IMG/VR virus record: IMGVR_UViG_3300035698_019747
Coordinates: 32,001 to 96,000 of that record
DNA from: a virus
Strand: one strand, 5' to 3'
DNA length: 64,000 nucleotides
A model generated the notes under the pieces. The model ran no database searches, was not told the DNA's origin, and saw only the letters and a list, made by a program, of their open reading frames with translations. The translations under genes were made by a program, and so were the position numbers. Positions 21,778 to 48,024 of the stretch are shown piece by piece. Every line of letters begins with the position of its first letter. Positions within the stretch are counted from its first letter, which is position 1.

Positions 21778-21823
21778 TATATTTGCATTATAATAAGAAA
21801 TGGGAAACCAAAAATAATATATA
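21778..21823 (+). promoter_or_regulatory. Tandem putative promoters for the leader/tRNA operon: TATATTTG at 21778-21785 and TAATATATA at 21815-21823
   Basis: Matches the Bacteroidota -7 consensus TAnnTTTG and the recurrent phage intergenic motif. Confidence 0.55.
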
Positions 21824-21830
21824 TACAGTA

Positions 21831-21908
21831 ATGAAAAAATTAGTAATAACATCAAGTTCACGTAGTAGTCGCAAACACCATTCTGGGGTCAGTTTACTCG
21901 TGCTATAA
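21831..21908 (+). CDS. Putative attenuator leader peptide MKKLVITSSSRSSRKHHSGVSLLVL
   Basis: 25 codons with Ser/Arg cluster TCA AGT TCA CGT AGT AGT CGC at 21852-21872, upstream of a terminator and Arg/Ser tRNAs. Confidence 0.75.
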   Translation: MKKLVITSSSRSSRKHHSGVSLLVL

Positions 21909-21938
21909 CTTTTGTTATAACTAATTAAGTAAAGCCTC
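21885..21938 (+). promoter_or_regulatory. Putative antiterminator helix
   Basis: GGGGT(CAG)TTTACT 21885-21898 can pair with AGTAAAGCCTC 21928-21938, enclosing hairpin TATAAC-TTTT-GTTATA 21904-21919; overlaps the terminator 5' arm. Confidence 0.55.
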
Positions 21939-21957
21939 ACATATGTGAGGCTTTTTT
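21931..21957 (+). terminator. Intrinsic terminator (attenuator) between leader and tRNAs
   Basis: AAAGCCTCAC-ATAT-GTGAGGC-TTTTTT. Confidence 0.85.
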
Positions 21958-21979
21958 GGTTTAAAATGTAATATAATAT

Positions 21980-22051
21980 ACCTTTGTCGTCTAACGGATA
22001 AGATACGGTGCTACGGACACTGGGATGGGAGTTCGATTCTCCCCAAGGGCA
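21980..22051 (+). tRNA. tRNA-Arg(ACG), CCA not encoded
   Basis: Anticodon arm CGGTG-CT-ACG-GA-CACTG; T-arm GGGAG-TTCGATT-CTCCC; acceptor ACCTTTG/CAAGGGC. Confidence 0.85.
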
Positions 22052-22065
22052 CTAATAATAAATAT

Positions 22066-22154
22066 GGTAGAATGACAGAGTGGTAATGTGCTGGTTTGCT
22101 AAACCAAGACCATCGGGTAAGACTGATGCAGGGGTTCGATTCCCTTTTCTACCG
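22066..22154 (+). tRNA. tRNA-Ser(GCT), CCA not encoded
   Basis: Acceptor GGTAGAA/TTCTACC, G73, anticodon loop TT-GCT-AA, long variable arm, TTCGATT. Confidence 0.9.
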
Positions 22155-22167
22155 CAAGTAAACAAAT

Positions 22168-22256
22168 GGAGGTGCGCAAGGTTGGCGTGCTTATCGGTCT
22201 TGAAAACCGTGATGTCGGGTAAGACTGACGTGGAGGTTCGATCCCTCTCATCTCCG
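22168..22256 (+). tRNA. tRNA-Ser(TGA), CCA not encoded
   Basis: Acceptor GGAGGTG/CATCTCC, G73, CGGT-CT-TGA-AA-ACCG, long variable arm; atypical D-arm. Confidence 0.85.
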
Positions 22257-22260
22257 CAAA

Positions 22261-22349
22261 GGTGAAGTGACAGAGTGGTAATGTACCTGCTTGGAAAGCA
22301 GAGATCATCGGGTAAGACTGATGCGGGGGTTCGATTCCCTCTTTCACCG
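22261..22349 (+). tRNA. tRNA-Ser(GGA), CCA not encoded
   Basis: Acceptor GGTGAAG/TTTCACC, CTGC-TT-GGA-AA-GCAG, long variable arm. Confidence 0.9.
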
Positions 22350-22362
22350 CAAGTAAACAAAT

Positions 22363-22451
22363 GGAGGTGCGCAAGGCTGGCGTGCTTATCGGTCTCGAAA
22401 ACCGTGATGTCGGGTAAGACTGACGTGGAGGTTCAATCCCTCTCATCTCCG
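22363..22451 (+). tRNA. tRNA-Ser(CGA), CCA not encoded
   Basis: Near-identical copy of 22168-22256 with anticodon CGA. Confidence 0.85.
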
Positions 22452-22716
22452 CAACACAGTTTTTATAATAACTAAAAAAATATTAAAATATGAAAAATAT
22501 ATTCGGAACATATAATATAAAATCAGGGCAATCAGTGTACTTAGAGAAATATTTAAATATTAATTTTATTGAATATATAAAAGTTGATAAGTGTACATTT
22601 ATTTTTTTATGAATCAATCACAATCAGAATACGTACTGAGGATGCTATCACCATATATTGAGAGCAATGAATCTGAGGGGATAATAATAGGGTTATAATA
22701 ATATATATATATATAT

Positions 22717-46920: not shown

Positions 46921-46961
46921 AAAAAACCCCCCCATATAAATTAATATATGGGGTTCTTTTT
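46921..46961. terminator. Bidirectional terminator
   Basis: CCCCATATA...TATATGGGG flanked by A and T runs. Confidence 0.75.
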
Positions 46962-48024
46962 AGTTTACTTCTAGATTAACTTTTCGATAACTTCTATTAG
47001 CAGAAATCACCTTAACAGATACTCTTTCACCAGCATTCATATCTTTTATGGAATTATTGTTTCTAACTAAACCAGATGTCTCACCATCTAATTCGATTAA
47101 AGTACCAATATCGATATGAGTCTTTATCTCACCTTCAAGAATTTGCCCCTTCTCAATAGTATCCCATAATGATGTTGAATCTACCTGAGATAATATGATA
47201 CCCTTTTTAATAACCTCCTTAACTTTAAAGGATATTTCTTCACCTGAGTGAATGCTTCGGTTATTAAACTTTTCGGACATGATCTCATTTAGGTTAGTCT
47301 TATGAATAAGTCCTGTTAAACATTCATTAAACTCAACAAAAACACCAAATTTAGTTGTACCAGTAACATGACCAGTATAAACTTCTTCTGCATCTAGATT
47401 ATCGATATATTGTGGTATTAATTGAGTTAAATACCCCCTTCTACTAACGATCCAAGTACCCTTTTCCTTTGAAAATGATTCTACACACATCTCTAGTGTC
47501 TGTCCTATAATATCTTCTTTTGCAGTGTCGTGAATCTTATTCACACCTGCTAGGAATTGTGGGAGAAACGCATCCACAAAGCAATAGTTGCCCAAAATCT
47601 GACACACGTAACCCGCAGGGTTCATGGACTCAATTTTAACATGCACATAATCCTTTTCATCAAGTTCTCTAAGTGTTCTATGAGTTTCTTCTTTATATAA
47701 TAAAGAAACACTACCGTTGATTTCAAACCCATTAGATGCCTCTGAAATGCGTGTGATGACAATAGGCACACTGTCCCCTATATTAACATTATCGAATATT
47801 AATGTTTCTTCTTTATTATTAGGCACTCTAACAATATCCTTGAATGACCCATCAAGTAAATAATCGTCTTTATCCATACCTGTATAAATACAAGTAAATG
47901 AATTTCCTACTTTCGGAACATTGATTGAGTCTAGCATTAATTTATACATCTCTTCCGTATATGTTGATTTAGTATCAACTTCATCAAAAAGGTAATCTAA
48001 TTCTTCTACTGCTGATTTTACCAT
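46960..48024 (-). CDS. Ribosomal protein S1-like multi-S1-domain protein
   Basis: AFLPQFL, IVSRR, YTGHVTGTTKFGVFVEF...GLIHKTNL and GQILEGEI S1 repeats. Confidence 0.85.
   Translation of the reverse strand: MVKSAVEELDYLFDEVDTKSTYTEEMYKLMLDSINVPKVGNSFTCIYTGMDKDDYLLDGSFKDIVRVPNNKEETLIFDNVNIGDSVPIVITRISEASNGFEINGSVSLLYKEETHRTLRELDEKDYVHVKIESMNPAGYVCQILGNYCFVDAFLPQFLAGVNKIHDTAKEDIIGQTLEMCVESFSKEKGTWIVSRRGYLTQLIPQYIDNLDAEEVYTGHVTGTTKFGVFVEFNECLTGLIHKTNLNEIMSEKFNNRSIHSGEEISFKVKEVIKKGIILSQVDSTSLWDTIEKGQILEGEIKTHIDIGTLIELDGETSGLVRNNNSIKDMNAGERVSVKVISANRSYRKVNLEVN

Follow-up and report, generated by a model that had tools for sequence, protein, structure and literature searches.

The locus studied here raises the question of what a short open reading frame (ORF) rich in serine and arginine codons, followed by an intrinsic terminator, does directly in front of five tRNA genes of a phage. 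It also touches on why phages carry tRNA genes at all, which has been open for about 50 years (PMC10264068). From the sequence, we conclude with considerable confidence that the locus represents a ribosome-mediated (leader-peptide) transcription attenuator that gates a phage tRNA-Arg/tRNA-Ser operon, with expression and regulation being inferred. The module is real and very probably functional, in the absence of expression data.

Anatomy of the locus

The window (that is, the whole stretch of DNA analyzed, 64,000 nt) represents bases 32001-96000 of a linear virus record of 152,402 nt with 28% GC content and about 56% completeness. Its products include a baseplate protein and ThyA as well as ClpB-like, GMP-reductase-like, CCA-adding-like, and S1-like proteins. 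Among phages, the GMP-reductase-like protein best matches uncultured huge phages of 460-640 kb, and relatives of up to 508 kb were recovered with a core gene. Searches of the record for the sigma70, RNA polymerase beta, and gp23 families gave no match, an absence that is uninformative in a record only 56% complete. The host is inferred, without a direct test, to belong to the Bacteroidota because of the TAnnTTTG boxes and the A-rich start regions that lack a Shine-Dalgarno signal. The CCA-adding/poly(A)-polymerase-family protein (window 1508-2632, plus strand) and the S1-like protein (window 46960-48024, minus strand) both score under the curated equivalog cut-off; beside the former, it can be noted that the tRNA genes lack an encoded CCA. 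The elements of the module, all on the plus strand, are as follows (window coordinates).

21778-21787, plus strand: promoter-like box 1, TATATTTGCA, a Bacteroidota-type -7 element (TAnnTTTG), function inferred
21816-21823, plus strand: promoter-like box 2, AATATATA, the positioned upstream motif of this phage
21831-21908, plus strand: leader ORF of 25 codons with an ATG start, from ORF inspection
21852-21872, plus strand: sensing run of seven consecutive Ser/Arg codons (codons 8-14; TCA, AGT, CGT, CGC)
21980-22052, plus strand: tRNA-Arg(ACG), with an A1-C72 mismatch and no encoded CCA
22066-22155, plus strand: tRNA-Ser(GCT), from tRNA search
22168-22257, plus strand: tRNA-Ser(TGA), from tRNA search
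22261-22350, plus strand: tRNA-Ser(GGA), which begins the second copy of a 195-nt tandem duplication
22363-22452, plus strand: tRNA-Ser(CGA), from tRNA search

The initial annotation had proposed two promoter-like boxes, a 25-codon ORF missing from the ORF list, an uninterrupted Ser/Arg run of seven codons, and the tRNA order Arg(ACG), then Ser GCT, TGA, GGA, and CGA, and we located all of these. An identical copy of box 1 precedes the Gln/Pro/Trp leader of the same genome (below) and one leader of the closest relative. The AATATATA motif occurs 43 times in 166 gene upstream regions, with peaks 12 and 27-29 nt before the ATG, and is found upstream of most leaders in relatives. The four Ser genes derive from the 195-nt tandem duplication (90% identity), and the next long ORF beyond the five tRNAs lies on the opposite strand.

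The codons of the sensing run are readable by tRNA-Ser(TGA), Ser(GCT), and Arg(ACG), and a run of at least seven Ser/Arg codons is found in only 2 of the 1257 short ATG ORFs of the genome, the other case being an antisense poly-Ser stretch. In the long ORFs of the genome, AGA accounts for 791 of 1255 Arg codons and CGN for 19%, bearing out the earlier remark that both leader Arg codons are CGN despite the dominance of AGA. The leader does not sample Ser(GGA) or Ser(CGA) directly since TCT lies outside the predicted read-through zone (below) and TCG is missing from the leader; a Lys codon lies at the edge of this zone. The His codons, which have no matching tRNA and had been listed as a caveat, were ruled out as sensors because they fall outside the modelled zone, and the caveat can be dropped. 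The leader peptide has no NCBIfam match. A T-box riboswitch (stem I specifier loop, T-box antiterminator bulge) was rejected, as the window has no Rfam match besides tRNA.

A predicted RNA switch between the leader and the tRNA genes

Between the leader and the tRNA genes, the following structures are predicted.

21838-21926, plus strand: anti-antiterminator hairpin (-22.6 kcal/mol), which folds in the ribosome-free RNA and masks the 5' strand of the antiterminator
21884-21939, plus strand: antiterminator, in which 21884-21889 and 21893-21898 pair with 21928-21939 and sequester the terminator 5' arm
21931-21957, plus strand: intrinsic terminator (attenuator), with a stem at 21931-21954 and a T-run to 21957 (-15.3 kcal/mol)

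Both the strong terminator and the pairing of the 3' part of the leader with its 5' arm are predicted essentially as the initial annotation had them; the long competing hairpin had been overlooked, as had the two sister modules elsewhere in the genome. The terminator starts 22 nt past the leader stop codon (mostly 18-30 nt in relatives), and the free RNA is predicted to fold into this hairpin plus the terminator (z -5.6 vs. shuffles). The antiterminator region (-12.5 kcal/mol) forms in predictions with the 5' part masked. However, the antiterminator alone folds no better than shuffled sequence (z -1.46); its support is comparative.

We modelled the effect of translation by placing a ribosome with a 13-nt footprint at each codon, letting the nascent RNA extend to the U-tract pause and assuming equilibrium folding. 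The antiterminator was dominant (0.7-0.8) only with the ribosome at codons 9-15, almost exactly the Ser/Arg run. From the His codons onward, its fraction did not exceed 0.2, and it was 0.0 both at the stop codon and without a ribosome. That is, the earlier proposal that a ribosome stalled on the run frees the antiterminator, and that one at the stop covers it, is reproduced in silico. Applied to E. coli leaders, the same model located the zone near the Trp codons in trpL and on the Thr/Ile run in thrL but failed on hisL; therefore, we consider it useful yet imperfect.

The mechanism that we propose would thus operate as follows, with leader translation and regulation being inferred in the absence of transcript, ribosome, or reporter data. 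RNA polymerase would start just upstream of the leader. When Ser and Arg(CGN) codons are decoded fast, the ribosome reaching the stop codon is modelled to cover the 5' strand of the antiterminator, whereupon the terminator forms and transcription stops around 21957. When no ribosome is loaded, the 21838-21926 hairpin would hide the same strand and transcription would also end, i.e., the anti-antiterminator is predicted to make termination the default state. When charged tRNA-Ser or tRNA-Arg(ICG) is scarce, a stall at codons 9-14 would melt the long hairpin, the antiterminator would capture the 5' arm of the terminator, allowing transcription of all five tRNA genes. The new tRNAs would then read the leader codons, and the loop would presumably switch itself off.

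Alternatively, the module might be vestigial or bypassed in this genome, with the Ser tRNAs made from an internal promoter or through phage-driven antitermination and the leader being irrelevant. The initial annotation had named a separate promoter downstream of the terminator as evidence that would refute its reading, and the following element is relevant to this point.

21955-21986, plus strand: possible internal promoter, matching the Bacteroidota pattern (TTTG, 20 nt, TAnnTTTG) perhaps by chance and extending over the 5' end of tRNA-Arg

Hence, a match 3' of the terminator does exist, at consensus spacing, and the A at window 21980, which faces C72 in tRNA-Arg, completes it; that is, the A1-C72 mismatch creates the match. 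The match could yield attenuator-independent Ser tRNAs, and together with the mismatch may reflect partial bypass or decay in this genome, while the G-U pairs and bulge of the antiterminator also fit a degenerate switch. However, such matches number nine genome-wide, about as expected from composition; a start from this one would fall inside, and truncate, tRNA-Arg; and none of the inspected Arg/Ser modules of relatives showed it. Further, the ORF, codon run, 22-nt spacing, and three helices are all intact, and the module behaves like its relatives in the model. We therefore regard a bypass as unlikely and retain the attenuator reading.

Matched leaders in the same genome and in other phages

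The initial annotation had suggested that other tRNA clusters of this and related phages be searched for leaders matched to their own tRNAs, and such leaders were found. In this genome, all three multi-tRNA clusters have a matched leader and a terminator, and each of the three leaders matches its own tRNA set best (0.38, 0.31, and 0.48). Of the two sister clusters, the one with tRNA-Gln, Pro, and Trp has a leader rich in Gln, Trp, and Pro (genome 115742-115659, minus strand), which is preceded by the same two promoter boxes. The one with tRNA-Leu(TAA) and Ile(GAT) has a Leu/Ile-rich leader (genome 104630-104698, in a module at 104630-104941 outside the window) that uses only TTA for Leu and ATT/ATC for Ile.

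A few peculiarities of these regions should also be mentioned. The Gln/Pro/Trp module (genome 115139-115742, minus strand, outside the window) has two tandem terminators, predicted by modelling to act as a relay in which the antiterminator frees the 3' arm of the first terminator, which in turn blocks the second. Its three TGG-anticodon genes (genome 115219-115472, minus strand) differ in their bodies, one of them having a long variable arm of the Ser/Leu type, and ARAGORN calls two of the three. An atypical tRNA-like gene with a CTA anticodon (genome 107007-107080, outside the window) has no leader and no terminator; beside this lone gene, we note that TAG ends 9 of 106 long ORFs.

To assess other viral contigs, loci were gathered with patterns that required a T-run and then a tRNA motif, to which loci found by tRNA motif or core gene were added; all of this was blind to leaders. 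An ORF of 14-60 aa ending 10-45 nt before the terminator stem was present in 132 of 150 low-GC terminator-plus-tRNA units vs. 22 expected from shuffles. In the non-redundant set (112 units), leader residues were matched by a cognate downstream tRNA at a fraction of 0.447 vs. 0.259 ± 0.009 in permutations (0 of 10000 reaching it), and 19 of 20 amino acids were enriched when the cognate tRNA was present, the exception being Met. The enrichment was restricted to a stretch about 10-25 codons ahead of the stop, where it peaked, with values near background in the last nine. Matching extended to isoacceptors for Arg (CGN:AGR of 47:20 with CGN-reading tRNAs vs. 5:17 with AGR-reading tRNAs; Fisher p 1e-4) and for Ile (ATY:ATA of 39:9 vs. 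6:12; p 6e-4); the choice of TCN or AGY for Ser did not track the isoacceptor (p 0.52). Leaders paired better with their own terminators than in swapped pairs (mean duplex -12.2 vs. -8.0 kcal/mol), and modelled antitermination was 0.54 for matched and 0.32 for unmatched codons, with 99 of 109 units showing this order, and only 0.02 at the stop. These p-values overstate independence because leaders fall into homologous families; however, the spread over 19 amino acids and many tRNA sets cannot stem from chance in one ancestor.

Conservation was also observed for the Arg/Ser module itself, as the initial annotation's reading called for. At least 12 other phage contigs have Ser/Arg leaders before Arg/Ser operons, including L008, L074, L091, L156, L166, L168, L202, L222, L225, L230, L240, the 635-kb huge phage LR745206.1 (L500), and the 508-kb relative (L509). 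Modules with CGN-reading tRNAs have CGN in the run, and L091, with Arg(TCT/CCT) tRNAs, has AGA/AGG. The helix between leader and terminator arm is predicted to fold with a ribosome on an Arg codon in 11 of 11 aligned family members, and the advantage of own over swapped pairing within the family is modest (p 0.014). A column-wise count of covarying pairs was uninformative because the MAFFT alignment, with a hand-set register, was out of register. Four modules of leader and terminator are present in G001, the closest relative as judged by a core gene (271 kb, 61% identity). Of these, three are clearly matched (Leu; Lys/Phe; Asn/Leu/Ile/Thr/Val/Met/Cys), whereas the fourth has unresolved anticodons downstream; no Arg/Ser block was found in this relative. 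Other searches added no family member: a dual-promoter pattern scan of viral contigs gave six matches and no leader-plus-tRNA module; blastn of the module against cultured phages returned tRNA-Ser similarity only; the Ser variable-arm pattern found no additional Arg/Ser module in metagenomes; and a reverse scan from the leader codon motif gave 116 matches, mostly GC-rich chance and none before Arg/Ser tRNAs. Certain tRNA groupings recur across diverged phages (L008, L017, L057, L500-L510), namely Arg-ACG+Ser, Pro+Gln, Cys+Val+Leu, His+Phe+Lys+Trp, and Glu+Tyr+Gly+Ile-TAT, for which common ancestry, or modification or nuclease targets in common, are possible reasons.

It is also conceivable that the leader senses slowed translation in general (through antibiotics, phage ribosome take-over, or starvation) or serves as a developmental timer, with codon identity being secondary, given that any stall at codons 9-15 opens the switch in the model and that general translational stress induces a tRNA array in Anabaena (PMC8421152). 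However, a general sensor would have no need of leader codons that track specific downstream tRNAs, as they do over 19 amino acids and, for Arg and Ile, down to the isoacceptor, and we consider this possibility quite improbable. Even less probable is a functional Ser/Arg-rich micropeptide, or a small RNA formed by the terminated transcript, with the terminator merely ending a gene: activity in trans is reported for leader peptides as well as for attenuator RNAs (PMC7298713, PMC6614838), but the peptides change completely with the downstream tRNA set while the geometry stays constant, and the leader here, as mentioned above, lacks a family match. A secondary role of the peptide or RNA in trans is not excluded. 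Finally, a chance short ORF before a terminator in AT-rich DNA is effectively refuted by the survey statistics (88% of units with a leader ORF vs. 15% expected, permutation tests, and three of three clusters matched in this genome), even though short ORFs are common and, upon shuffling, an ORF at such spacing arises in about 15% of upstream regions. Hence, we favor the attenuator interpretation of the initial annotation, supported by recurrence in the family, matched leaders elsewhere, and a read-through zone that falls on the Ser/Arg run, with regulation and trigger remaining unproven.

Relation to known systems

The phage module meets every computable feature of the thr/ilv multivalent attenuator mechanism: a short ORF with clustered control codons upstream of the controlled genes; an intrinsic terminator between leader and genes, outside the footprint of the terminating ribosome (22 nt); an antiterminator and terminator that are exclusive, stall-freed, and stop-blocked, in silico only; and an anti-antiterminator, with the no-ribosome state terminating when the leader is untranslated. 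The thrL (Thr/Ile), ilvL, trpL, and hisL attenuators share the short ORF, the control-codon run, the three exclusive helices, and the intrinsic terminator, and thrL is also similar in footprint-model behavior and in stop-to-stem distance (24 nt vs. 25 nt here, by the same measure). However, enterobacterial attenuators control biosynthetic enzymes, whereas the phage-borne module controls tRNAs, its codons matching the downstream isoacceptors such that the product would directly relieve the stall; no sequence homology to the former was evident (no Rfam match except tRNA). The module does not belong to the amino-acid-biosynthesis attenuator family because its targets are tRNA genes, five of which lie downstream.

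The pheST leader is an attenuator of aminoacyl-tRNA synthetase genes. His leaders precede hisS paralogues, and T-boxes control synthetase genes (PMC2965389, PMC2494555). These systems also sense charged-tRNA supply and control a translation component by termination/antitermination, but their targets are synthetase proteins, and T-boxes bind uncharged tRNA directly, without translation. The tRNA L-array (trn operon) of Anabaena PCC 7120 is similar in being a spare tRNA set that is silent until translation is impaired; its proposed control is a repressor at promoter direct repeats, without codon specificity, and neither attenuation nor a leader is mentioned (PMC8421152). Among counter-defence phage tRNAs, which likewise replace host tRNAs destroyed by defence nucleases, the T5 tRNA-Lys counters PARIS (PMC11464382), and phage tRNAs have been hypothesized to evade anticodon nucleases (PMC10264068); the accessible parts of these two papers describe no regulation of phage tRNA genes. 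Attenuation and leaders are not mentioned in the huge-phage paper (PMC7162821), and a genome-wide attenuator survey, as far as its accessible part goes, does not mention phage and has no passage on tRNA-gene leaders (PMC2965389). The initial annotation knew of no phage tRNA operon regulated in this manner, and we also found no description of attenuator control of tRNA genes in the literature searched, with most subscription journals outside its scope. That is, the mechanism is classical leader-peptide attenuation; what we did not find in this literature is the target (tRNA genes), which closes the feedback loop.

Possible trigger, significance, and occurrence in bacteria

Starvation and tRNA loss should both induce the operon because a stalled ribosome cannot distinguish them. 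We infer, nevertheless, that tRNA supply is the selected signal, since matching is at the isoacceptor level and extra tRNA is no cure for amino-acid starvation. The trigger itself is inferred to be a host tRNase defence or starvation. The need to replace tRNAs cut by defence nucleases appears the likeliest reason for sensing tRNA loss, although no nuclease acting on the tRNA-Ser or tRNA-Arg of this host was identified here; alternatives are host tRNA turnover or high demand late in infection. More broadly, we tentatively hypothesize, without regarding it as the probable outcome, that each tRNA operon of large Bacteroidota-type phages has its own isoacceptor-specific tRNA-depletion sensor, together forming a bank of sensors that detect the destruction of particular host tRNAs by anti-phage tRNases and induce the replacements. 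If true, this would represent an inducible counter-defence, with the leader codons recording which tRNAs are attacked.

A sensor for shortage of exactly the downstream tRNAs argues for on-demand replacement over constitutive codon compensation, a question on which it also bears that the Arg tRNA here reads CGN, the minor fraction of phage Arg codons. When and why a given tRNA runs short in infection therefore becomes directly testable, each leader being a ready-made reporter. The results extend leader-peptide attenuation to non-coding RNA targets with direct feedback on tRNA pools, and flag a common unannotated element of jumbo-phage genomes and, apparently, of some bacterial contigs.

Indeed, matched leaders before tRNA genes were also found in a sample of bacterial genome contigs and thus, the device may not be limited to phages. 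Leaders with terminators precede tRNA arrays at L486:4779, L451:3670, and L457:5917 (all minus strand), in Puia, Flavihumibacter, and Phycisphaera assemblies; the L486 leader is clearly matched (Pro/Gln/His/Leu/Arg), and all three arrays are possibly chromosomal or mobile. Two Acidobacteriota contigs (L400:1000-1180 and L410:5160-5410) have a Cys-rich leader and terminator directly before tRNA-Cys. Finally, a Candidatus Shapirobacteria contig (L496:1390-2897) has a leader with tandem Trp codons, a terminator, tRNA-Trp, and then the start of a putative trpB-like gene, possibly a bridge between biosynthetic and tRNA attenuators.
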